From the NCBI GenBank assembly GCA_010015805.1, contig ML978123.1:248001-312000 (forward strand): a stretch of 64,000 nucleotides of DNA, read 5' to 3'. Under the pieces are notes generated by a model. That model searched no databases and was not told the origin of the DNA. It saw only the letters and a program-made list of their open reading frames with translations. Of this stretch, positions 2,767 to 31,891 are shown piece after piece; position 1 is the first letter of the stretch, and the number at the start of each line of letters is the position of its first letter. The position numbers and the translations under genes are program-made. The stretch is from Rhizodiscina lignyota. Taxonomy: Eukaryota.

Positions 2767-3316
2767 AGGTGTAGGTGACGATTGCGTACTACTGGCAAGC
2801 TGAGTGCCTTGTACAGAAAGAGTGGCAGCTGTCGTGGCGTCATTGTCTGTTTATGCGCTTGTTCGCTCGAGTGGACTTGGGAAATTGACGGTCAAAGAGA
2901 GTTAAGGTCAGGGTCAGATCAGATCAACATAACTGAATAAAGGCGCGGAAACCGCTCCAGCCAATCAATCTTCGGTAGCGTGCAAGGGTTGCTCTTTACG
3001 AGAGACCTTCGGAGTATTCCGCCGCCAGTTTTCTATGAGCGACAGGTCACAGAGGTGCCCAGGGATCAACCAGTCTGGGGGCCTATGCCACCCAGACTTC
3101 GGTACCATGCCAACCAAACTCGTGGTTGAAGGGCAGTAGTTCCTTCCAGGTTTTCGTACCGTCTCGTCCCGGGATTCATCCGAGGTGTATCAGGTCATGG
3201 ACATCCGACGTCCGACTTTCAATATGACTGGAGGCCATTGGGCAATTGTAAGCCAGACAGAAGGTAGTTCCAACGACTCTACGGTTCATGGTCCTCATTA
3301 CTGTCTGTTTCTCATC

Positions 3317-4375
3317 ATGTTACACCTCCGCTTACGGGGCTTTTCACATCATCGGCGTTCTTTGAACGTGCTTCCTCACATACGACGATTCTGCCCTCAA
3401 GAGCAACTATGTGAGCGTCAGAATCCCAAGAGACTTGGCCATTTTTGGAATGCACAATACCGGTTGAATCACTCCCAAGCTTGGAGAGCTCTTTCTGCCG
3501 AGGACATGAAATCGTCCTTTGGCATCTCATCTCCACCCGCCGTCAAGTTTCCTGAAATCACCTTTCCTACTCCTCACATCCTGCTCGTAACCTTGAACAG
3601 GCCACGCTCGCTCAATTGTGTAAATACTGACGGCCATTACGAGCTGGAGGAGCTCTTCAAATGGTTCGACGACGAGCCCCAGCTTCGCTGCGCAGTCCTG
3701 ACGGGAGCAGGACGAGCATTCTGCGCCGGAGCGGACCTTAAGGAATGGGATCAAAGAAATGAGAAAAGAGCGCGCGGAGAGCTTGACGAACGACCTAGGC
3801 TGCCTCCGTCTGGCTTTGGCGGCGTCGGTCGTAGAAGAGGGAAGAAGCCAATCATCGGAGCAGTTAATGGAATGGCTTTGGGCGGAGGATTCGAGATTGC
3901 GTCGGCGATGGATATGGTCATCGCGGCTAGGAGTGCTCAGTTCGCTCTACCAGAGGTCAAGAGGGGGGTGGGAGCTCTTTCGGGTTTGCTACCGAGACTG
4001 CATATGATGTTAGGCAAGCAAAGAGCGCTTGAGATGGCACTCACAGGCCGGAATTTAACTGCGCAGGAGGGAGAGAGGTGGGGATTCGTGAGCGCTATAG
4101 TCGACGATGCGGCTCCAGAAGAGGATGTGATAAAACGACCGGTCGTACAGAAGGCATTGGAATATGCCGAGTGTATTGCGAACAACAGCCCCGACAGTGT
4201 TATTGTTATTCGCGACGCCATTATGTCGGTGTGGTACGAAGGCAATGTAGACACGGCCCACGATGAAGCGCACGACAAATGGGCAAAGAAGCTGGACGAG
4301 GGAGAGAACATCAAGGAGGGTGTTAAGGCGTTTGTGGAAAAGAGAGCACCGCGCTGGGTGAACAGCAAATTCTAG
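3317..4375 (+). CDS. Enoyl-CoA hydratase/isomerase (crotonase family, CaiD-like)
   Basis: LNRPRSLN, AFCAGADLKE, KPIIGAVNGMALGGGFE, FALPEVKRG, EGVKAFVEKRAPRW motifs. Start uncertain (ATG 3317 gives an Arg-rich leader; the downstream MKSSFG start is an alternative). Confidence 0.9.
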   Translation: MLHLRLRGFSHHRRSLNVLPHIRRFCPQEQLCERQNPKRLGHFWNAQYRLNHSQAWRALSAEDMKSSFGISSPPAVKFPEITFPTPHILLVTLNRPRSLNCVNTDGHYELEELFKWFDDEPQLRCAVLTGAGRAFCAGADLKEWDQRNEKRARGELDERPRLPPSGFGGVGRRRGKKPIIGAVNGMALGGGFEIASAMDMVIAARSAQFALPEVKRGVGALSGLLPRLHMMLGKQRALEMALTGRNLTAQEGERWGFVSAIVDDAAPEEDVIKRPVVQKALEYAECIANNSPDSVIVIRDAIMSVWYEGNVDTAHDEAHDKWAKKLDEGENIKEGVKAFVEKRAPRWVNSKF

Positions 4376-8581: not shown

Positions 8582-11500
8582 ATGGCTCCGGCAGTCGACG
8601 TTAAGGAAGCAGCTGCTCCCTCTGCAGCGACTGTCAAATCCGAGAACACCAAGTCCTTGAAGGTCTTGGAAGAGCTTCTGGCCAAGTTGTCCATCTCAAA
8701 GGCTCAAGATGAGATCAACGCCACTTCTCTGGACCTCGCAACCTTCATTAATGGTGACATCGAGCAGGCTGATGCGCCGACGAAGTAAGTTTGCCACCTT
8801 GAAAATCCTTATCGCGCATCTTCACACGATCGCATTTTCTGGACTTTGGCTAACAAATGATTTTGCAGGGCTGTCGAGCTCTTGAAGAAGCAACTCGGCA
8901 ACAAGAAGGATGCTCTCGCACGCGAGCGCGCCCTCGATGCCATCAAGGCGATCGCCTCTCACTCCACCGTCTCCCCCGCTGTCGAGCCGTACCTTGTCGC
9001 TCTCCTTCCCGCAACTCTCTCCGCGGTTGGCGACAAGATGGTACCGGTCAAGAACGCAGCACAGGCTGCTGCAGAAGCAATCGTCAAGGCGACCAACGCC
9101 AACGCCGTCAAAGCTATCATCCCACACCTCATCCACTCGCTCAGAAATGCGCAGAAGTGGCCCGAAAAGATGACGGACCTGAAGTGCATGGAGATTCTGT
9201 GCGAAAGTGCGCAGGCTCAGATGGCTTTCCGCGTTCCGGACCTGATTCCTGTTGTTTCCGACGCGATGTGGGACACCAAGCCTGAGGTTAAGAAGTATGC
9301 ATACGGCACCATGGAGAAGCTCTGCGCCCTCATCTCGAACAAGGATATTGAGCGCTTCATTCCGGAGCTCATTACCTGTATCGCCGATCCCCGCAAGGTT
9401 CCAGAGACGGTCCACTTGCTCGGTGCCACCACTTTCGTCACTGACGTCCACGAGCCTACCCTGGCTATCATGGTTCCTCTGCTCGAGCGTGGTCTCCAAG
9501 AGCGTGAGACTGCGATCAAGCGTAAAGCTGCCGTCATTGTCGACAACATGTGCAAGCTTGTCGAGGATCCTCAGATCGTTGCACCTTTCCTGCCAAAGAT
9601 GATGCCCAGCCTGACGAAGAACTATGACACGATGGCCGATCCTGAGGCCCGTGAGAAGACAAAGCAGGGTCTGGACACCCTTACCCGCGTTGGTGCCGTC
9701 AAAGATGGCAAGATCCCCGAGGTTTCACGAGCTGGCGACATTGCCACCGTTGCTGGTATTCTGAAGAGCTGCTTCAAGGAGACACCCGCGGCGAAGTTCG
9801 ACCCCATTGTTGAGTACGTTGCGGCGATTGGCGGCCAGCTCGTCGACGAGAAGGACACTGAGCAGGGCAACTGGGCCACGAACGCCACTCCTTACCTTGC
9901 TGTCATCGTTGGGGAAAACGATGCTCCTGCGATCACGGACTCCCTTCGCAAGCGTGCTTCCCCAGGCGTTGCCGAGGAGGAAGAATTCGAGCCTGATGAG
10001 GAGGAAGGTGAAGATCTGTGCAACTGCACGTTCAACCTTGCGTACGGTGCCAAGATCCTGCTCAACCAGACCCACCTGCGTCTGAAGCGTGGACAGCGTT
10101 ATGGTCTGCTCGGCCCCAACGGTTCCGGCAAGACCACTCTCATGCGCGCCATCAACAATGAACAGGTCGAGGGTTTCCCCAAGCAGAACGAGGTCAAGAC
10201 CGTCTACGTCGAGCACGATCTTGATGCTGCCGACACTGAGCAGACTGTTCTTAGCTGGACCATGAAGAAGCTCGAGTCCGTTGGTATCAACATCTCCCAA
10301 CCGGACGTTGAAGCCAAGCTTGTGGAGTTCGGCTTTGTCAAGGAGCAGATTGAAGCACCAATCACCTCTCTCTCTGGTGGCTGGAAGATGAAGCTTGCGC
10401 TTGCCCGTGCTGTGTTCGAGGAGCCTGATATTCTCATGCTGGACGAGCCTACCAACCATATGGACGTCAAGAACGTTGCCTGGCTTGAGGACTACCTTAT
10501 GAACTCGCCTTGCACTTCCATCATCATCTCCCACGACAGCAAGTTCTTGGACCACGTCATTCAGCACGTCATCCACTACGAGCGCTTCAAACTCAAGAGA
10601 TACCGTGGTAACCTCAGCGAGTTCGTCAGGCGTGTCCCGTCCGCCAAGTCTTACTACGAGCTTGGTGCCTCAGAGATCGAGTTCAAGTTCCCTGAGCCCG
10701 GTTTCCTTGAGGGCGTCAAAACCAAGGCCAAGGCCATTATTCGTGTCACCAATATGTCCTTCCAGTACCCTGGCAGCGCGAAGCCTCAGCTCTCTAACAT
10801 CTCCTTCCAATGCTCGCTTGGCTCTCGTATTGCTGTCATTGGCCCTAACGGCGCAGGCAAATCTACTCTCGTTAACGTGCTGACTGGCGAACTCATTCCT
10901 ACTTCCGGAGAGGTCTACCAACACGAGAACATCCGTATTGCCTACATCAAGCAGCACGCTTTCGCTCATATCGACCATCACCTCGACAAGACGCCTTCCG
11001 AATATATCCAGTGGCGTTTCCAAACTGGTGAGGATCGTGAGACTATGGATCGTGCGAACAAGATCATCACCGAAGAGGATGAGAACGCCATGAACAAGAT
11101 CTACAAGATTGAGGGAACTCAGCGCCGTGTCATTGGTATCCACTCTCGTCGCAAGTTCAAGAACAGCTACGAGTACGAGTGCTCGTTCGTTCTCGGTGAG
11201 AACGTCGGCCTGAAGAACGAGAAATGGACTCCAATGATGACTGCCGACAACGCTTGGATTCCTCGTTCCGAGATTCTCACTTCCCACGGCAAGATGGTTG
11301 CCGAGGTCGACCAGAAGGAGGCCCTCGCCAGCGGTCAATTCCGTCCTCTGGTCCGTAAGGAGATTGAGGCTCACGCCGCGAACTTTGGCCTCGATGCCGA
11401 GTTGGTTTCTCACTCCCGCATGCGTGGTCTCTCCGGTGGTCAGCGTGTCAAGGTCGTGCTTGCAGCTTGCTCATGGCAGCGCCCTCATTTGATCGTCCTC

Positions 11501-11869
11501 GACGAGCCGACTAACTACCTGGACCGTGACTCTCTCGGTGCCCTGTCCAAGGCTATCAAGAGCTTCGAGGGTGGTGTTATCATCATCACTCACTCGTCCG
11601 AGTTCACCAGGGACCTGACGGAGGAAGTCTGGGCTGTCATGGACGGCCGCATGACGCCATCCGGCCATAACTGGGTGCAAGGTCAAGGCTCTGGACCCAG
11701 ACTGACGGAGAAGGGCGAGGAAGAGGAGCGCTTCGACGCCATGGGTAACAAGATCGATGCGGCGAAGACAAAGAAGAAGCTCACCTCTTCCGAAGCCCGC
11801 AAGAAGAAGAAGGACCGTATGGCACGCCGCAAGCGTGGTGAGGAGGTCTTCTCCGATGAGGACGACTAG
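8582..11869 (+). CDS. TEF3: Translation elongation factor 3 (eEF3, ABC-F ATPase)
   Basis: HEAT-like N-terminus, two ABC cassettes ([19 protein letters not shown] and [19 protein letters not shown]), Lys-rich C-terminal tail, strong codon bias; intron 8785..8868 (GTAAGT...CTAAC...TGCAG). Confidence 0.97.
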
Positions 11870-12952
11870 ATGAATCAGACTGGACAAACTTTTCGTCTTT
11901 GCAATGTTATTACGATGCATCTGGGAGTGATGGGCTCTTTCATGATTTGGGTTTGCATATGCGCAAAAGCAGGGCTCTGACGTCGTTTCGATAGATCGAA
12001 CATAGATCTGTAGAAGGGGAATACGGCGTCCGGGGATGATGATAATGCGATGCTGTTGCTTGAGCAGTCGATGAACGCACCAAGCGTCTATAGACGATAG
12101 ACATAGAGGATTAGATTTATGGATTGAAGTTACAACTGTCTTTGTGCACATATGAGAATCGTGGGATACCTCAAGCCTCTTATCCGTCGATTTCACGCCG
12201 CTCGATCGGTCGGTGGAGCGCAAACATGAAAGCCAGAAATCCGCTGTGTTGACTAAGCATCATCTCATGTTCACAACAGAATTGAACATTGAATCCAATC
12301 TTCCGTGAGTTGAACTCTTCCTCATCAAACAGGAAATCCCACACAAAGTTATCTGCAAAAAACTTTGACCGATTCTGCTGCTGTGAGCGAAGTCAGCTAG
12401 GTTACACTGGCCAACAGCACGTCTTTCCTTTCTCTCCTGCTTTGGTCGTACTACTCGAGCCTATTATTCTGGCATGACCAGATCACGGATTCCATCACGG
12501 TCTTGTGCTTAGCACAAATGAAAACAGCTGCCGGAGCTCCACATATTCCAGACCTTATGAGGTGCATTTTCAAGCATTAAGACTTGCCGTACCAGTGCCG
12601 GACACAATGTCTGAACCTTCCGAACTTGACTGTACAAGGGCCGCGCAGCATTGCTTTCATTGCCGGCGTCACTCATAACCCTCTCCAGTCATCAATGTCT
12701 GCCGGAGCCTATATTTATCTGCTGTGAAACTTCTTTCTGTTCTAGGCTATTTCTCTATTTACGAGCCGAACTGTAACAATGCATGTGCCGAAGAGCAAGA
12801 GCGGCGACACCGACCAGTGATGCTGCCGGACCTGATACACTGATGGAAGAGAGCTCTATATTAAAAGAGCTCCTGCCATCGCGGACAGTTTATCCAAACT
12901 ATCGATCAAAGAGGGTCAAATTACAATAACATCCTCTTCAATTTCTCTCGCG

Positions 12953-20656: not shown

Positions 20657-21649
20657 ATGTCTGTCACTCTCAAAGCGGCAGCCTTGTTGGGCATCTTTGC
20701 TAGCAGTGCTCTCGCTCACGGCACTGTCAGTGGCATTCGTGCTGATGGCGTCTACAGCGAAGGATGGCAGCTCTCGTACTACTACGACATTCAAAACGGG
20801 GTAGCGTTCCCTCCGACTCCAGGCTGGTACGCAGAGAATCTCGACAACGGCTTCATCTCACCAGACAATTACACCGACCCCAATATAATTTGCCACAAGA
20901 ACGCCCGCAACGCCAACATCACAGCGACGGTCAAGGCCGGCGGGACCATAGACTTCTTGTGGACTCCCTGGCCTGCTAGCCACATCGGGCCTGTATTCAC
21001 ATACGTCGCCAACTGCGACGGCAACTGCTCGGCTGTGGACAAGACAACGCTTGAATGGGTCAAGATTGACGAAGGAGGTATCAACTTTGATACTCAGACA
21101 TGGGCAACTGCCGATCTGATCGCCAACAACAATACCTGGACGACCAAGGTACCCTCGACCCTCGCTGCCGGACAGTACGTGTTCCGACATGAGATCATTG
21201 CAATGCACGGAGCCGAGGCTGAGGACGGTGCGCAAAACTACCCGCAGTGCCTCAACATCGAGATCACAGGCTCAGGGACGGACAAGCCAGAGGGAACACT
21301 TGGAACGAAGCTGTACACCCCCACAGAGCCTGGCATTCTCTTTAACCCATACACGACCCTCACGAACTACACGATTCCAGGTCCTCCTCTGTACAGTGGA
21401 GCGTCGACTGCGGTTGTCTCAGCAGTCGCTTCTTCCGGTGCCGCCACATCTGCTGCTTCTTCCTCTGCTGCTGCTACATCGGCCACTTCTGCGGCCACGG
21501 TTACTCCGCCGTCCAGTGCAGCAGCGCCTGCCAGCACTTCAACCGCCCCTGGTGCCTCCGATGTAGCTCCTTCGAGCTCCAGTTCTGCTTTGACATCTGC
21601 ACCATCCGCGTGTAAGCGCAGGCGTCATGCTCGTGACATTGTTTCCTAG
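20657..21649 (+). CDS. AA9 (GH61) lytic polysaccharide monooxygenase, secreted, with Ser/Ala/Thr-rich tail
   Basis: 20-aa signal peptide then N-terminal His (HGTV), [32 protein letters not shown] motifs. Confidence 0.95.
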
Positions 21650-22272
21650 GTGGGATGGACAATGAGACCGCCTGAGGCTGAATTTGGATTCTTGTATATA
21701 GTTATACTGTTGAAGGACGGCGAGGCGAGGAAAGGATTGAGTTCCATTCAATGTACATATGCTATTTTTAGACACCGTTGTCTCCCATTGGAATAAAGTC
21801 GATGACTTTTGAAAGGGTGATACGTCCTTTTGCGAAAAGTGTCTCATCTGTGCGAACCTCCTGATACAGTAATCAGTTCAAGTGAGACATGTTTTTCCCC
21901 ATGTTCCGCCACGGCGAGTGTCGAGAATGCTGAAGTCAGAGGTAGGACACCACCAGAGCTATTTTGCCATGGTAGGAACTCTTATGCAAACCACATATTC
22001 TCCACTCTCGCGTTTTCCTTAATACCTCTAATTACAAAGCAAAGGCTATGAAATATTAATTCTAAAGTGTATCCCTCGACTTCTTCGCATGTGTATTCTC
22101 TAAGTAAAATCTGTTACGGAGGTATTCCGCAACCTGCTGACCAATAATCCCTTTTCTCCTGTACAACGCTTCATTTACCAAACGATTAGTATTCTTATTA
22201 ATATTTCGTCTGCTCATCTTTCTTTTGCATATTTCATGTGTTGGTTCATCTAAAACCCCGATTTTCTATACA

Positions 22273-23007
22273 ATGTCTTCTACTTTCTCGTCTACATCAT
22301 TTACTTCAAATCCGATCATCTCAAGACCACCGCCCTCTGCGGTTATTTACGATCTTAGCTCTCCCACTCACACAACTATAACGTTACCCGTAGGATCCTT
22401 ATGGTCCAGTGAGTTACATTGGCATGAGCGGCACACAGAGTTTCTGCGCGTGATCAAAGGCTCAGTCCGCGTCCGACTCGACAATCGCAGCTTCGTTGTC
22501 AAAGCCCCAAAGGAGTCAAATGAAGAGGCCATTGTACGCGTTGACATCGGCGTACGACATGAGTGGAAACGGGCAGACGCGGATGAAGCGGCGGGAGAGA
22601 AAGACGAAGAGGAGGTCATTGTGATTGAAAGCACCGAGCCGGCAGACACGGAGAAGAGGCTCTTCTTCTGGAATTTGAACGGTGTCATTCTTGAGGCGCA
22701 GCAAGGTTCGACACGAGAACAGCCGAAGTTTTTGGCTGCTCTGATGATGGAATGGCGGATCATGTTGCATTTATTCGTCATTTTCAAGGGACTGGATAAT
22801 TTTCCTGTGTTTTGGGATCTTAGCACCAAGCTCAGTGGCGTCGGGAGCGGCTTGAGAAGCGCAAAGAGAGCAGAAGGGTTAATCACACATGGCATCTTTT
22901 GGCTCGTGAGAATAGCGGGTGCTGCTCTGGGAATGAGGGCGGTGGAAGAGAGGTTCACTCCTAAAGAACTCTACTTGGAATGGAAATCCTCAAAGAAGGA
23001 TCTGTGA
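22273..23007 (+). CDS. Cupin (RmlC-like) domain protein
   Basis: LHWHERHTEFLRVIKG and GVRHEW cupin motifs, followed by KRLFFWNLN; ATG at 22273. Confidence 0.75.
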   Translation: MSSTFSSTSFTSNPIISRPPPSAVIYDLSSPTHTTITLPVGSLWSSELHWHERHTEFLRVIKGSVRVRLDNRSFVVKAPKESNEEAIVRVDIGVRHEWKRADADEAAGEKDEEEVIVIESTEPADTEKRLFFWNLNGVILEAQQGSTREQPKFLAALMMEWRIMLHLFVIFKGLDNFPVFWDLSTKLSGVGSGLRSAKRAEGLITHGIFWLVRIAGAALGMRAVEERFTPKELYLEWKSSKKDL

Positions 23008-23091: not shown

Positions 23092-26000
23092 TCATTGTGG
23101 CAAGCTGATTTCTGTACAGCCTTTGAGTAATCGCCCCCACACTGCCTTGCTTCGAGAGTCCTCGTTATTGCTCTCGATCCCAATCAGCGTTTGCCTGTCG
23201 CCGATGATTATCACGCCAGCTCTTGCTCGTGTCATGGCAACGTTCAGACGCCGCATATCGTCCAGAAACCCGAGTTTGGAATGAACATTGCACCGCACCG
23301 TAACGAAGATGATAATATCCGCTTCACGGCCCTGATAACCATCAATGCTGGAGACTGTATATTTTGGGAGCGCCGATTGTAGCTTTTCTCTCTGTCTCGC
23401 GTATGGCGTGAGGATCGCAATGTCCGAGTCAAGCGGAGTTGGATTTTCTGCGGGACTCGTTGCCGACTCAGGCGCGGAAGAAAGGAGCTTGCAGGTCTGT
23501 CGACACACATTGATTTGCCCATCATTTGACTTCGACTGACCCCCAAGATCCTCAGCGTCCGAGCACTGTATGAATACCTTGCGGGAGTTGGCTGGCCAAG
23601 GAAATTTCGATGCTGTGAGCGGTATCGTTTCCGCGCTCTTTGCTGTCCCAAGTTTGCTCTCATAGAATTCTGCTGAACTGAAAGCACATATGTCTGGGTG
23701 CATTCTGTATTGAGTATCCAGCATAACCCTGGCAATACCAGGGCGCTCCGGCATGCCGTAGTGTCGTTCAAAGAGGGATATATGGTAGTCGACAACCGCA
23801 GCATGTTTCTGAACTGTGGCTCGGAGCTGAACATGGTCGCCAACTAGAATGGCACGCGAACATCCCTTTGTCAGAGGTATCAAGCTCGCCGGTTCTGTCT
23901 GCTGAGAGGCTTCGTCGATGAGTACAACGTCGAAGAGTTCTTGACGAAGCAGGCCTAGCGCAGCGCCTACGCAGGTAGTAAAGACTAGCCTGCTCTCTTC
24001 AACTCGTTTCTGAGCCAACTTATAACCTGAAAAACTGTTTGAGATCTCTTTGCCCACCATCGCATCACAAGTGAACTCGCGTAAGGTGCTTGAGACTTTG
24101 CTAAGCTACACAGCAGTCAGCCGAATCCAGATTGGATAAGCCACCCCAAGAAAGAGGAGCTGTGAAACTCGATTCTGCTAATGAGTAGGGTAATGCTTAC
24201 CGTTGTTGATACCCTTAGTGGCTTGACACCGGTCAACTCTGGACCTTGCTCCATGATAAATCGTTGCAAGATGTTGTCAACGGCGTTGTGGGTGGGTGCT
24301 GTCACTAAGAACCGTTTATGTGGCAGCTGAATGAGCAACTCCTTCAATATAGCAACAATGGTCTTCGTCTTTCCTGTTCCCGGCGGGCCCCACAAGAATG
24401 ACAGAGGGTTTGTCAATGCAGCCGCAAGAGCTGTGTTCTGACTCTCGTTGAGTGCATCGCTATATTTGATGTCCAGCTTGCCCCCAGTGAATTCGATTTG
24501 GTTCTCTTGAAGGCCGACAAGGCTAGCGTACAGCTTGCAATTCGCTGTTTTTCCGGCGTAGAAGACGGTTACGGCATCGAACATTGCCTTGCTGGTAACG
24601 AAAGATCCGCAATGAGTCGGGATCCAGCTACATTCTTTTGCATACGATGGGATGTTATGCAAGCACCGGAACCTGGCCGATCCCAACTCGGAGTTTATGA
24701 CAATCGCATCCATCGAGTACGGTTTGGATATCGGGGCGTTTTGGGGCGGATCCGATGCTCGTAGCCGGACATGGTCACCGGCTCTTAAGGCGTGGACCGG
24801 AGAATCAATGCGCACCGTGGCTTTTACGACACCAAATCCCTCGTCGAGACCATCTGGTATCAAATCCAAATACACTCTTGAGGTTTTGCTAGCGCTTGTA
24901 GCCTCGTCAATATGATCGATCGCAATCCCGATGATGCTTTTGACGAATTGCTGGATGACTGGCAATCTGCCAATTAGTATTCTGCTCGTTTCAGGCTCGA
25001 TGCACTCTAGAAGAATATCTAAGGCCGTTTCCGGATCCTGAACGGAGAGCGCGACAAGCTGTACAATCCCTGAAAGGTCTTGCATAGACATATGCTTTAA
25101 CTCCCGCAGCAGAATTAGAATCGGATCTCGAATGAACGCTTGATGTGAATTGGCAGCAAGAATCAACTGCCTCAGTAGAAGGGGCGCAGTATGCACCAAG
25201 TCATCCTCCAAAGAATCCTTATGGGCTGCCCAAGTCTGTGACTTGAAGAAGAGTGGTACCAAGTACACTACATTCGGGAGGAAGGTCAGAAGAGAGCTGA
25301 CTACTTTGTTCTGCGGAATTGCGCTATTTGGTCGATTGTCAAGAAGATGGGTGTAAATTTCGCGGAGCCGAGTCTTTTCATCCAGGTCCTTGAGCAAAGT
25401 CAAGATATCGAATATGGTGTTAATCGAGGTCAGATGTTGAAATTTGGAGAGATTGTGATCGCGCATTATTTCCGCTACCGATGGATCAAGCTCAGCCCAG
25501 TCGACGTCCTTGATGCTTGGAATCCGGTACTCCTTCTGTTGCTGCTCGAACAGAGGAAGAACCTCGTCAGTGTCAACATAGTGCAACCATTGATCTAGCA
25601 GTTGCATGGACTTGACATCTCTGTTGCTGATGACGAAGATTTCCTTGACCTTGTCAGTACACGGTGCTGCGCCTCGAAGTATTACATACCGCAGCCAGAA
25701 TACCCGCTCTGTTCATCCTACCAACATGTGTTTGGATATCTTTCCCGATTTTTTGAAGAGCGACGCTCGCTCTGCAATCAAAGTTGACTCCTTCTTCGAC
25801 CGTTTGGTGCCTCTGCCTTCTCCGGTCGCCATTGTTCTTGATGTTGCGATGAGACGATTCATCAGACTGGCTTCGAGTTAAGTACACGAAAGTGTTTCCT
25901 CTTTTCAGCTCATAAAGTTGAAATGTTGACTCGTCGCAATATAATCTGAAGTTAACCTTTGTTGGAGTTGCTCTATAGTGCACCGATTGGGACCCTTGTG

Positions 26001-28476
26001 ACTGAGGAAATGCCAAAACGCGTACGCTGGCATCAACTTGAACTTCACTGGCCTTTGGAATTTTTTGTGGAACGTATATGGCCAGTGTAAGACGCTCGTC
26101 TGGTTGCAGGATTATCAGCTTCTTGTGGAATACCTCTAAAGAGCGACATGCCGAGTGGAGAAATTGGCCCATTCGCTCCGTGGCCGAACTGAAAACTGGC
26201 TTCCAGTGGAGAGCATGATGGTCCAGCTTGAACCGGCTCAACTCTGCCGGCTCGAGCAATGATGACTGCAACAAGCCGTTTCTGACCAGACTTGGGAGCT
26301 GTTTCGACGAAGGAAGTGTGCCGAGCATCCAGATCTGTTGCTCATCACTGAGCTTACTGAAGTCAAAGAACGGCGCAAACTCTGTGATGTCGGCATTGTT
26401 CCGGGTGCACCAACGAAGTGTCATTTGGATAAGTTCGAACTCAGATACAGCAATTCTGTCCCTGCTCAAGAGTAAATCCATAGCATCGACCTCGTAATCC
26501 AAGCAAGACAGGTTGCTTGCAGTCTCAGCTTCAATCTTCTCTTTGGCCGCAGCGTGCAAGACATCTAAAATAAACGGTGGGGATGTCTGGGGAGGTTCCG
26601 GCGGATCTTCGAGATTTACAGGAACTCGGATGCGGTTGCCATCGACGCACTGGGAGAAGAGTCGATTTAGCTGTTGACACTCTGGACTGAGTGGACCTTT
26701 GAGTCTCGCCCACTTCAGATACAAGTTCTTGACCCGACCGAGGGAGGCATTGGTATATCTTGCAAAGAATTCAGCTCTATCATCATCAGTGATCTGATTG
26801 AATGATATTGGTTCCTTCACTCCGGGATAAAGAGCGGGCTGGGAAATTAGGCGTGGAATGATATCTGGATCCCAAGTCACGAAGACTGGTGCATTCTGTC
26901 AGTTATATGTAAACACTGCCGTTATCTGGGAAAACGATGGAAAAGAAAATAGCAAATGTCTTTGTGCACTCACATTTATCGCCATCTAGGTCACCACCGG
27001 ACATTAAGTCGGCACTCGGTCTCTTGCCGCACGTGGGGAATACGATACAGTCGATGAGGTGCGCAAACTCTGGAACATCCACAGCTTTGAACTTTTGCAA
27101 ATCGCCAGGGTGCAGGCAAGGGTTCCTGGTCACCATAACTTCGGTATTCATTATGGTCATTGCCCGACCATCGCCGTCCAGCGTGGTTCTCACGAAGCAG
27201 GTGCCTGGCTTGAGAATTCCGTTCGTACCAGGTTCGCCAGATGGATCACAGATTCCAAAGAGCAGCCGAGACTGCGGAATTAGGATGCGACATCTCTGTT
27301 CATTGTATTTGTTGAGCATTCGAGCATGTTCCTGTTTGATTAGACCCCGCAGGTCTCGGTGAACAGACGGTACGCCATCTATGAGAAGTCTCTCTGCAAG
27401 ATCGAGCCGGTTGAGATACGAGAGAAATTGAAATGCGGCTCTGTTATCCCCTTGGACGGCTTTATGTAAGAACTGGAGATATGTGTCCTGTTTCTGTAGT
27501 ATTGTCTCAACAGCTACTCCGAGAGAGTTCAGCAGTAGAACAACTTCATCGTTAAGGTAGCCGAAAGCATAAGGCTAGAAGCAGATCAGCAATTATTCTC
27601 GTAGAGCACTGCAATACTACTTCTTACCTTGGAATATTCAACTACAGATAAGGAGAGATCCTTTGCATCGCTAAACTTTTTCATGGAAGCTCGAAATTGA
27701 ACCTGCGTCTGCCCTTTTAGTTCTGGACAGAGTGTCAGTACCCCTTTGTAGCCTCGGTATCGAATCTGGAACACCGATGGGAGGTATCTCTTGTTCCTGA
27801 ACGCAATATTTCGTCGCTGAACGAGTTGTCTTGCCAAGGTCGCCGAAATCCGCCCACAGCCGTCAGTGAACATGTAGTCTCCAGAGGTGATATCATCGAT
27901 ATCTTCACAGCGATTGGGTGAAAGTTCTAGGGCCATATCTGCACTCGAAAATAAGAGGCCGATACGTTTCGCTTTCTTGCCGACAGATTTGAGCTTCGAA
28001 AAGTCGCCCATCGCTTCGACTTTGACGGATATTTCCTGCTTGGTAGCCGCAAACATAAAGCAACTTCTTGACTTGAGCTGACTGTTGCTATGGCCGAAGA
28101 AGTGGTATCTCACGCCATTGAGGATGATCCCAGTTTTTAGAAGTCTCGCAATGTAGTCTGCCGAATCTCTTCCCGGAGCTAATCGAAGGGGGTCATTAGG
28201 ATTCAACTTCGGCTCCCGTAGGCGAAAGTCTGCAAAAGAGAGTAACATGAAACGGTGGAGAGGGTCCGAACGAGTGACTCTGGTGGAAGGGGCATTTTCA
28301 AGTCGCAATTGAATGCCCTGCTTTGACAGCGATGACACTAGCTGAATAGACTTGACAAGTCCAGCGTCGTCAAGTTTATCAGCACGAGGGAGATTCGGAA
28401 CGGTAAATTCCCATTTTGTGTCGTTCGCAAGTATTTCTTTCTGTAGTGTGCTCACAGGAAACCGAAGTTTGCTCAT
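23092..28476 (-). CDS. RNA-dependent RNA polymerase fused to C-terminal Upf1/DNA2/NAM7-like SF1 helicase (~1700 aa)
   Basis: Exons 28476-27628, 27574-26974, 26885-25690, 25643-24201, 24105-23092 (5103 nt, in frame across canonical GT-AG introns). RdRP motifs FFGHSNSQLK, FTDGCGRIS, PSVFQIRYRGYKG, VTRNPCLHPGD, SGGDLDGDKFFVTWD; helicase motifs GPPGTGKT, APTHNAVDN, DEASQ, GDHVQL, QYRMHP, IDGYQGRE, RRLNVAMTRA. Confidence 0.93.
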
Positions 28477-28699
28477 GGCGAGTTGGACCGAGTTGGTTTG
28501 TGGCGCTTTCGCAGCAGCATGAGAGAGTCGAAGGAAGAGTACGAAGAGCCTAGAGGATCGAATGGCTTGTTCGATTGCTTGTCCTATTTAGGTGGATGTT
28601 GCATATGCTGTGTAACCACGTGAGATTCGCACATCAAACGGTCTGACACTCTAAATATTGGCTGTTCGCGAGGCTCAAAGTAAACCCCACAAGTTCAAA
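28477..28699. promoter_or_regulatory. Short divergent (bidirectional) promoter between RdRP-helicase and AAA_28 genes
   Basis: 223 bp between two divergent ATGs; palindromic CACGTG at 28617-28622. Confidence 0.5.
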
Positions 28700-29323
28700 A
28701 TGGGGGATCCTAAGAATATCTTTGTTATTGGTGCTCAGTGCACAGGCAAATCAACCCTAGTCAATGGTCTAGAAGGGCATTTCTCACAGAGTCTCAGCCT
28801 TGCTCCAAGTCCCAGCATCATTCGGGAGGTTGCACGTTCTGTGCTCCATAAATACGGCTTCACTCGAGATGACATCTTGAACTCTCCTGAGCGCGCCCTA
28901 CAACTGCAAGAAAAAATCCTGGAAGCTCAATTTGAAGCTGAGGGCGCTATCTTAGACGACCTAACAACAAAATGGTACATTTCCGACCGGTCTGGCCTGG
29001 ATCCAATCGTCTACGCCTACCTGTATGTCAGTGAAGAGTCTGCTCAGAGACTGCTTGCGTCTCCGATATGGACAGCATTAGAAAGCAATATGAAAGGAGG
29101 ACTCGTGATCCTTTGCGAGGCTGGATGCAGCTGGCTTGTTGATGATGGGACGAGGCTGATGCCAAAAGACGATAAAGACTGGGAGAGAGTGGACTTGGCT
29201 TTCAGGATGCTACTCGATATGCGAGACATTGAGTATATCTTGCTACCTCGCGATATGAAGGACCTTGAGCGGCGGATTGAGATTGTTGTAGAAGCCCATG
29301 GATCGCAAGTGCATGGCATGTGA
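28700..29323 (+). CDS. AAA_28 (NadR/Ttd14-like) P-loop nucleotide-kinase-fold protein
   Basis: N-terminal Walker A IFVIGAQCTGKST, IIREVARSVL, LQEKILEAQ, YISDRSGLDPIVYA, LVDDGTR and LERRI motifs; ATG 28700 is in frame with the 28658 ORF. Confidence 0.85.
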   Translation: MGDPKNIFVIGAQCTGKSTLVNGLEGHFSQSLSLAPSPSIIREVARSVLHKYGFTRDDILNSPERALQLQEKILEAQFEAEGAILDDLTTKWYISDRSGLDPIVYAYLYVSEESAQRLLASPIWTALESNMKGGLVILCEAGCSWLVDDGTRLMPKDDKDWERVDLAFRMLLDMRDIEYILLPRDMKDLERRIEIVVEAHGSQVHGM

Positions 29324-30356: not shown

Positions 30357-31049
30357 TCAATCGCTGTCGCTCCCACTTCCGGTCGGTCCGTCGTCGTCGT
30401 CCTCCTGCACGACATCGTCCGACATCAGGAACGAGTACTCCGCCTTCTGCAAGAAGCTTCGCAGCTCCGTGTTCCTCGGATCTACGAGGTCGAACGGCTT
30501 CAGCTTCGCCTTGTTCCGTATTCTGCAGTATCATTAGCCTTGCCTTCACCTCCTACGCATCTACCCTCTCTCAAAACTACATGCACATACCTAGGATCAC
30601 ACCCCGCATCCACCAAAATCTCCACCACCCCTCTCACCCTCTCCTCCCCCAGCTCCTCCTTCTCCCCCTTGTCCAGCCCATTCACCCACCGCACCGCCTT
30701 ATGCAGCGGCGTGTCGCCCTCCATGCGGTCCAGCGGGTCGACCTCCAGCCCCTCCTGGTCCAGCAGCAAGTCCAGCACCTCGTACGCACCGCATGCGGCT
30801 GCAACGTGCAGCGCGTGCGCGCCGATGCCGTCGGTGCTATGGTTGAGCACGTCAGTGAGTTGGGAGGGGCTGAGGGAGAAGTGGTCTTTGGAGTGGTGCA
30901 GCAGGTCGGAGAGGAGGTCGGTGTTGTTGCGGCGGCAGGACTCTAGGAGGAGTTCGCGGGGGGTGGCGCCCTGGGAGGTGATCAGTATGGTGGAGCGGTG
31001 TGGATATGGAAGTGTAGGATTAGGAATTGTGAGGTACCTCGTCTGCCAT
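30357..31049 (-). CDS. Small conserved ankyrin-repeat protein with acidic tail
   Basis: MADE|GATPRELLLESCRRNNTDLL...HALHVAA...GDTPLHKAV...LVDAGCDPR|IRNKAKLKP...DDDDGPTGSGSDSD*; two introns. Confidence 0.85.
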
Positions 31050-31410: not shown

Positions 31411-31891
31411 ATGTTGCTCTGTAAGTTTCCTCCTCGACATCGTATCTGCTCAGCATGCCTAACGCGCCTCACAGTCTGTCCAAATTGCAGCAACATGCTG
31501 CTCGTCGCGCGCACCCCCTCCACCACCGTCAACGGCGTCGAAGACCCCAGCTCCGGCCAGAACCGCTTCGAATGCCGTACGTGTCCGTACGCCTACGCGC
31601 TCGACGGCCGCTATTTCGAGCGCAAGTTCTTCCGCGCCAAAGTTGCAGAGGATGTGGTGGGTGGTTCGGAGGGCATCAAGGACAGGAGCAAGACTACGAG
31701 TGAGTTTTCACTCGAAGCAGGATGATGCGAGAGACAGGATATATTCTCTGATACAGCCAACAGTCCAATGCACGAACGAGAAGTGCGACGGCCAGGAGGC
31801 GCTGTTTTACCAGCTGCAGATTCGAAGCGCGGATGAGCCGATGACGAACTTCTACCAGTGTGTCAAGTGCAAGAAGGAGTGGAGGGATTGA
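31411..31891 (+). CDS. RPC11: RNA polymerase III subunit C11
   Basis: MLL|xCPNCSNML...RFECRTCPY N-terminal Zn ribbon and TFIIS-like FYQLQIRSADEPMTNFYQCVKC; two introns. Confidence 0.93.

Follow-up and report, generated by a model that had tools for sequence, protein, structure and literature searches.

The locus described here raises the question of whether two adjacent genes of a filamentous fungus have been kept together by selection, and what such a partnership might be for. It lies in a stretch of 64,000 nucleotides from Rhizodiscina lignyota (assembly GCA_010015805.1, contig ML978123.1, positions 248,001 to 312,000 of the forward strand). This stretch is called the window, and all coordinates without a locus name refer to it. 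One gene encodes a fusion of an RNA-dependent RNA polymerase (RdRP), a predicted TLDc-like domain and a superfamily 1 (SF1) helicase, the other a small P-loop kinase of the family AAA_28. They are arranged head-to-head. A first-pass annotation had placed the two ATGs at 28476 (minus strand) and 28700 (plus strand), 223 bp apart, and the gene models confirm this. Probably, the two genes constitute a selected, co-regulated module of filamentous ascomycetes whose kinase acts in support of the RdRP-helicase pathway. This reading is favoured because the linkage is of old date, is restricted to this pair and has withstood an inversion, and because the kinase is strongly constrained. Co-regulation and action in one pathway are what we infer from the linkage, and the substrate proposed below is inferred likewise. 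The locus is composed as follows:

23092..28476, minus strand: RdRP-TLDc-helicase fusion gene, five exons, 1700 amino acids (aa), spliced frame open
28476-27628, 27574-26974, 26885-25690, 25643-24201 and 24105-23092, minus strand: the exons of the fusion gene, stop included, joined at GT..AG
28477..28699, no strand: shared divergent promoter region, 223 bp between both ATGs
28700..29323, plus strand: AAA_28 (NadR-RNK-like) kinase gene, single open reading frame (ORF) without intron, 207 aa

The four introns of the fusion gene (53, 88, 46 and 95 bp) are all of the GT..AG type, and the resulting frame of 1700 aa is open. Residues 1-1485 are identical to the deposited protein P0121 ("RdRP-domain-containing protein [Rhizodiscina lignyota]"). 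Past residue 1485, P0121 runs out of frame via a spurious intron, and AAA_12 is lost. In the window, exon 5 (23092-24105) is an uninterrupted ORF that contains the whole AAA_12, and the length of 1700 aa matches the size of the relatives. The deposited gene model is corrected here, and both genes are intact.

The same arrangement was found in many other fungi. Metagenome contigs were searched with a profile of 28 AAA_28 orthologues, 80 loci with at most 10 kb per side were taken, and the five fusion exons of the window were sought in them by tblastn. Thirty-six loci (L043, L044, L046, L047 and L049-L080), many of them from marine samples or sediment, were excluded; they have weak kinase matches (23-35% identity, some with partial query coverage) and no RdRP match. 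Among the 44 fungal-type loci, 17 with less than 900 bp upstream were uninformative, and 27 were informative. L015 was counted as uninformative, its homologous upstream sequence extending for just 213 bp before the contig end. In 22 informative loci, the fusion gene is located head-to-head directly upstream of the kinase gene, and in one (L031) the two genes are in tandem. Three loci (L019, L020 and L037) carry the kinase without RdRP. The last one, L038, equals L006 at 96-98% nucleotide identity minus L006 2336-5706. The missing stretch spans the N-terminal part of the kinase, the promoter and the RdRP half of the fusion; L038 represents a deletion allele or else an assembly join or chimera. 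The first-pass annotation had proposed a linked module and had named unlinked AAA_28 homologues in other genomes as the finding that would speak against it. The opposite was observed: when lineages were collapsed at 90% kinase identity, with partial rows assigned by hand, the fusion gene was adjacent in 19 of 21 informative lineages (18 head-to-head, one tandem).

In named genomes, the pair is found on consecutive locus tags or accessions in 10 of 11 cases checked. These are Saxophila tyrrhenica, Coleophoma crateriformis, Alternaria sp. BMP 2799, Stemphylium lycopersici (two assemblies), Monosporascus ibericus and five further Monosporascus strains. The 10 genomes with the pair span Dothideomycetes, Leotiomycetes and Sordariomycetes. 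The exception is Monosporascus sp. MG133 with kinase and fusion on separate contigs. Five further kinase/fusion pairs, including those of Massariosphaeria and Lophiostoma macrostomum, are located on contigs of equal size. The linkage is specific to this pair: none of the 234 flank ORFs of the window (at least 60 aa; 8-23 kb and 29.3-45 kb) matches any of the 80 loci at E <1e-8, so that no other window neighbour is conserved in them, and the Pfam content of the locus flanks differs from lineage to lineage. The pairing is not due to chance.

How old is the linkage? A fusion tree was built from the exon-3 region with 28 rows (the window, 15 loci and 12 named proteins) and a kinase tree with 32 rows; duplicates and partial sequences were excluded from both. 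The same three groups appear in both: one centred on Dothideomycetes, to which the window belongs, a Leotiomycete/Sordariomycete group and a deep clade on a long branch (L026-L034). Linkage was found in each of the four informative loci of the deep clade, head-to-head in L027, L029 and L032 and in tandem in L031, at a kinase identity of 32-35% and with start spacings of 124-313 bp. The neighbours in this clade include eukaryotic genes such as ATG11 and CBP80-like genes, and the nearest clusters of the kinase are dominated by Ascomycota. The linkage is ancient and has withstood one inversion, that of L031. In the fusion tree, the sordariomycete Monosporascus clusters with Pleosporales and the leotiomycete Coleophoma with Dothideomycetes. 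This placement could reflect old paralogous pairs or a transfer of the unit.

The short region between the two start codons contains the palindrome CACGTG (28617-28622), to which the first-pass annotation had drawn attention as part of a shared promoter. Its presence stands, its role does not: with 13 copies in the window versus 13.3 expected, and with an occurrence in 2 of 21 orthologous intergenic regions, it is a chance feature and was rejected as a regulatory site. The conserved element of this promoter is another one:

28610..28616, minus strand: GTGTAAC, the reverse complement of GTTACAC, directly abutting CACGTG

Exact GTTACAC was found in 12 of 20 intergenic regions, compared to a maximum of 7 in 100 shuffles. 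The relaxed form GT[T/G]ACAC is present in 14 of 19 head-to-head lineages (window included), usually 87-255 bp ahead of the kinase start, at a background of 0.043 per 250 bp. The intergenic region of L032 (~9870-9995) is without GTTACAC and has the palindrome GTTACGTAAC, which we take to resemble a bZIP site.

A promoter of this kind could by itself account for the conservation of the pair. The main rival explanation holds that both genes have unrelated functions and are linked passively by an indivisible bidirectional promoter, where any breakpoint harms one of them. The tight start-to-start spacing (208-260 bp for 14 of the 20 loci with a measured distance), the single central element, the lack, among the matches examined, of proteins in which kinase and fusion are joined, and the occurrence of unlinked kinase genes all agree with it. 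However, the fusion gene of L031 is inverted, therefore no shared promoter holds this pair together, and adjacency persists nevertheless. In the deep clade, the pair persists in the absence of the motif and at spacings of 124-313 bp. Furthermore, no other neighbour survives over the same divergence. We regard passive linkage as unlikely.

What does the fusion protein do? Its domains are encoded as follows:

26536..28296, minus strand: eukaryotic RdRP domain (PF05183), residues ~61-600, Pfam matches in exons 1-3
26992-26978, minus strand: DLDGD motif, residues 478-482, intact
25569..26208, minus strand: TLDc-like domain, residues ~710-907, across intron 3, with a helical segment (~610-700) ahead, from the AlphaFold2 (AF2) model and Foldseek
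23095..24452, minus strand: Upf1-like SF1 helicase core (AAA_11 and AAA_12), Pfam matches in exons 4-5
24389-24366, minus strand: Walker A motif GPPGTGKT
23919-23902, minus strand: IDEASQ motif

PF05183 was matched in exons 1-3 with E-values of 2e-46, 5.3e-38 and 6.3e-11 (159, 131 and 42 bits versus a cut-off of 23.8). In the DxDGD motif, the catalytic motif of RdRPs, D478, D480, G481 and D482 show no variation across the 31 fusions aligned. The solved structures closest to the RdRP half are plant RDR2 (E 1e-22) and then QDE-1 (E 1e-10). Judged by its sequence, the N-terminal half is a cellular RdRP with an intact motif, and RNA-templated RNA synthesis is predicted. The C-terminal region matches AAA_11 in exons 4-5 (64 and 82 bits) and AAA_12 in exon 5 (165 bits, E 1.5e-48); its closest solved structures are UPF1/NAM7 (E 6e-42 to 1e-38), followed by SEN1, IGHMBP2, DNA2 and ZNFX1.

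The region between RdRP and helicase is well conserved and without Pfam match. An AF2 model of residues 601-920 (pLDDT, the predicted local distance difference test score, 82.4) displays a helical segment and then a TLDc fold. In Foldseek, this model matches the TLDc domains of NCOA7, OXR2 and TBC1D24 with E-values of 2e-4 to 7e-2 and template modelling (TM) scores on the target of 0.56-0.68, NCOA7 being the best (E 2e-4, TM 0.67); mEAK7 is matched as well. No Pfam match to the TLD profile was obtained at E <=0.01, with exons 3 and 4 scanned singly though the domain spans their junction. According to the model, the middle region of the fusion adopts a TLDc fold.

Among the best 120 relatives of exon 4, 94 combine RdRP and SF1 helicase, 25 are shorter helicase-only proteins and one is RdRP-only. 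The names among them belong to Dothideomycetes, Leotiomycetes, Sordariomycetes, Lecanoromycetes and one Aspergillus. The fusion is of the FgRdRp5 type, and its architecture is already published and not new. As described in passages of two papers, FgRdRp5 (FGSG_09076) of Fusarium graminearum comprises an RdRP and a DEXDc/AAA region and forms its own RdRP branch closer to plant RDRs (PMC4515635, PMC11237814). A passage of the latter reports that it is needed for normal ascospore discharge and affects exonic small interfering RNAs (siRNAs) (PMC11237814). Both proteins are, as far as these passages go, single polypeptides of ~1700 aa with an RdRP and a C-terminal SF1 helicase region, and RDR2 is also the best solved match for the window RdRP. 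In contrast, the passages of PMC4515635 and PMC11237814 mention neither an AAA_28 neighbour nor a TLDc-like domain. The class was assigned by architecture, and the Fusarium member among the relatives is P0240 of Fusarium gaditjirri. FGSG_09075 is listed as a transcription factor in the part of a published supplement that covers it; FGSG_09075 and FGSG_09077 appear in no main text of open-access papers or preprints. The first-pass annotation knew of no description of the pairing and saw in it the best candidate for an undescribed system. On the pairing, the literature search agrees: no description of it, of the promoter element or of the TLDc-like domain was found in open-access papers and preprints (subscription journals and most supplements lay outside the search). 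The fusion itself is published, to judge from the same passages, as FgRdRp5. Within the same reach, no kinase partner of any RdRP complex is described.

The second gene had been predicted to encode a compact P-loop protein of ~207 aa with the motifs GAQCTGKST, SDRS and DDGTR and a fold like that of nucleoside monophosphate kinases. All motifs are present, and the fold is borne out by the AF2 model. The motifs are encoded at:

28730-28756, plus strand: Walker A motif GAQCTGKST, residues 11-19
28826-28837, plus strand: EVAR
28982-28993, plus strand: SDRS, residues 95-98
29141-29155, plus strand: lid motif DDGTR, residues 148-152

The 207-aa protein matches Pfam AAA_28 (PF13521) with an E-value of 3.7e-24 (86.2 bits versus a cut-off of 27). 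Its AF2 model has a pLDDT of 91. The best structural matches are ribosylnicotinamide kinase (RNK) domains of NadR (Z 18.5 and 17.7, root-mean-square deviation 2.6-2.9 over 180 residues), which also come first in Foldseek (TM 0.66-0.68). Thymidylate and deoxynucleoside kinases follow with Z 14-16. In a profile search of solved structures, NadR is on top as well, and P-loop, E-x-A-R segment, Walker B Asp and DDGxR lid align; the NadR motif positions used for comparison are published (PMC7221760). In the model, the kinase thus has the NadR RNK fold with the Lys of Walker A, the Asp of Walker B and an Arg in the lid, and activity on nicotinamide riboside is predicted at most. NadR itself was ruled out, because an adenylyltransferase domain is missing and the cut-offs of the NCBIfam NadR models are missed by a wide margin (TIGR01526 19.4 versus 341 bits, NF005988 16.7 versus 201). 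Across all 32 kinases compared, including the deep clade with its overall identity of only 32-35%, 22 motif residues do not vary. The active site is conserved, and strong constraint acts on this enzyme.

Bacterial NadR is the best match of the fungal kinase in sequence as well as in fold, with Walker A, Walker B Asp and DDGxR lid in common (PMC7221760). Unlike NadR, the fungal kinase is standalone without nicotinamide mononucleotide adenylyltransferase (NMNAT) or helix-turn-helix domain, and its substrate is predicted. An animal member of the AAA_28 family is TTD14 of Drosophila, a GTP- and phospholipid-binding protein according to the abstract of PMC4624897; it shares the Pfam family and differs, as far as that source goes, in being a trafficking factor without RdRP context.

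In three loci from two very distant clades, a concentrative nucleoside transporter (CNT; PF01773/PF07662/PF07670) was found by Pfam just downstream of the kinase:

L002 8015-9151, minus strand: nucleoside transporter
L031 5561-6025, plus strand: nucleoside transporter
L032 11243-11710, plus strand: nucleoside transporter

The ancestral cluster may have included the transporter as its third gene. Its position beside the kinase mirrors the uptake-plus-trapping logic of bacterial NadR/PnuC, with a CNT in place of PnuC. Kinase fold, invariant motifs and transporter neighbour therefore suggest a nucleoside-like 5'-OH as putative substrate; RNA ends are also possible.

The latter would apply if the AAA_28 protein bound the fusion and phosphorylated 5'-OH RNA (templates, primers or products) as the third activity of an RDRC-like complex. 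In Schizosaccharomyces pombe, RDRC consists of Rdp1, the helicase Hrr1 and Cid12. The likeness is that an RdRP is teamed with an SF1 helicase and an enzyme that handles nucleotides. However, here polymerase and helicase are one polypeptide, the third enzyme is a kinase and not a nucleotidyltransferase, and the genes are physically linked. The motif set of 5'-OH kinases (P-loop, acidic E43 ~26 residues further on, DRS and lid Arg) is invariant, the role of E43 being presumably that known from deoxynucleoside and polynucleotide kinases. In L032, an ORF for a Cid/MTPAP-like nucleotidyltransferase (3174-3773, plus strand; PF22600, E 7e-11) is located ~1 kb past the helicase end of the fusion, an echo of Rdp1-Hrr1-Cid12; a Cid12-type nucleotidyltransferase is found beside the pair neither in the window nor in the other scanned loci, only in L032. 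An APH-family kinase is encoded farther out than the nucleotidyltransferase (L032 216-1574, plus strand). Against an RNA-end kinase speaks that small-molecule kinases (NadR RNK, thymidylate and deoxynucleoside kinases) come out on top in the structural comparison and that the transporter neighbour favours a free nucleoside as substrate. Polynucleotide kinases are not among the 50 best structural matches of the kinase model, which does not exclude them. Co-folding of fusion residues 600-1390 with the AAA_28 protein yielded a score of 0.00 without supplied alignments and is evidence neither for nor against binding. Altogether, we consider an RNA-end kinase subunit rather improbable. A passage of PMC11237814 refers to Hrr1 and SAD-3 as RNAi helicases.

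A still bolder proposal links all three genes in one ancient route from nucleoside to RNA, from the transporter via the kinase to the RdRP-TLDc-helicase. The product of the kinase would be a special 5'-phosphorylated nucleoside, e.g. nicotinamide mononucleotide (NMN) or an analogue, and would serve the polymerase as a non-canonical nucleotide for initiation or termination. We give this idea little credence. If it were true, fungi would have an RdRP pathway biochemically distinct from canonical Dicer/Argonaute amplification.

Could the pair serve antiviral defence? In vertebrates, viperin sits head-to-head with the nucleotide kinase CMPK2. This system resembles the fungal locus in that a gene with nucleotide-kinase fold is divergently arranged with a gene for a nucleic-acid-directed enzyme. 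By analogy, the fungal pair might be an inducible cassette whose kinase provides an immune effector with nucleotides. The head-to-head layout with a nucleotide-kinase-fold gene, the resemblance of the predicted TLDc fold to NCOA7 and the fact that small-RNA responses of F. graminearum to hypovirus infection are, according to its abstract, the topic of PMC4870495 are in line with this. On the other hand, the enzyme families differ, and neither a radical-SAM nor another effector gene is located at the window locus. Inheritance is stable and looks vertical, whereas defence islands are usually patchy. The FgRdRp5 phenotypes published in the passage cited above, ascospore discharge and exonic siRNAs, are developmental (PMC11237814). 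Such a cassette appears very unlikely.

Several observations weigh against a selected module. The loci were picked via the kinase and come from few metagenome campaigns, so that linkage is counted from the kinase side only. In three cases (L019/L020, L037 and Monosporascus sp. MG133), the kinase occurs without linked fusion and is therefore able to function apart from it. Divergent pairs can last via promoter sharing alone. GT[T/G]ACAC is absent from all four deep-clade loci as well as from L002 and L013, and the transporter is limited to three loci. Among the best 150 of 941 exhaustive profile matches, no Rosetta-stone form that joins AAA_28 to RdRP, helicase or NMNAT was found; the fused forms in this set are P450-AAA_28 and ricin-lectin only. 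A search for longer AAA_28 proteins yielded one match (Curvularia, 651 aa) with AAA_28 as its sole domain.

Some side observations concern individual kinases and their surroundings. The database proteins P0415 and P0424 each join a cytochrome P450 to AAA_28, and a P450 gene is the downstream neighbour of the kinase in Pleosporales-like loci (L006 6423-8050 and L025 6557-7018, both minus strand); this association may represent lineage synteny or merged gene models. In L007, also a Pleosporales-like locus, the kinase is immediately followed by an ORF for a DDE_1 transposase (10928-12604, plus strand). The kinase of L019/L020, the only fungal lineage that is plainly unlinked, has a gene for a diadenosine tetraphosphate (Ap4A) phosphorylase upstream (L019 920-1357 and L020 2-403, both minus strand); no end branch of the kinase tree is longer than its own (1.05 versus a median of 0.33). 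Around the gene pair of the window, a scan for repeats revealed just short chance matches. The window neighbours are:

20657-21649, plus strand: AA9 lytic polysaccharide monooxygenase
22225-23007, plus strand: weak cupin-like ORF
30500-30850, minus strand: ankyrin-repeat ORF
31411-31891, plus strand: RPB9/TFIIS zinc-ribbon (RNA polymerase subunit-like) gene

If the two genes form a selected module, it might work in the following way. Fusion and kinase would be transcribed divergently from the compact shared promoter with GT[T/G]ACAC and inherited together. The kinase would phosphorylate the 5'-OH of a nucleoside-like substrate, which in some lineages is possibly imported by the adjoining transporter. 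It would thereby supply or modify a nucleotide for the RdRP-helicase in the synthesis of small RNAs or double-stranded RNA. By analogy with the published FgRdRp5 phenotypes, this might take place during sporulation and sexual development.

Among fungal RdRPs, the FgRdRp5-type polymerases are a branch of their own that is widespread but has hardly been studied, and for which a knockout phenotype without a mechanism is available. To our knowledge, adjacent pairs across the classes of Pezizomycotina are rare outside metabolic clusters. The TLDc-like domain predicted here is added to the known fusion architecture. Fusion and kinase remain neighbours in distant fungi, and the kinase is therefore suggested as an unrecognised partner of the polymerase. 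Conserved more strongly than any other gene nearby, it is a concrete candidate cofactor for this branch.

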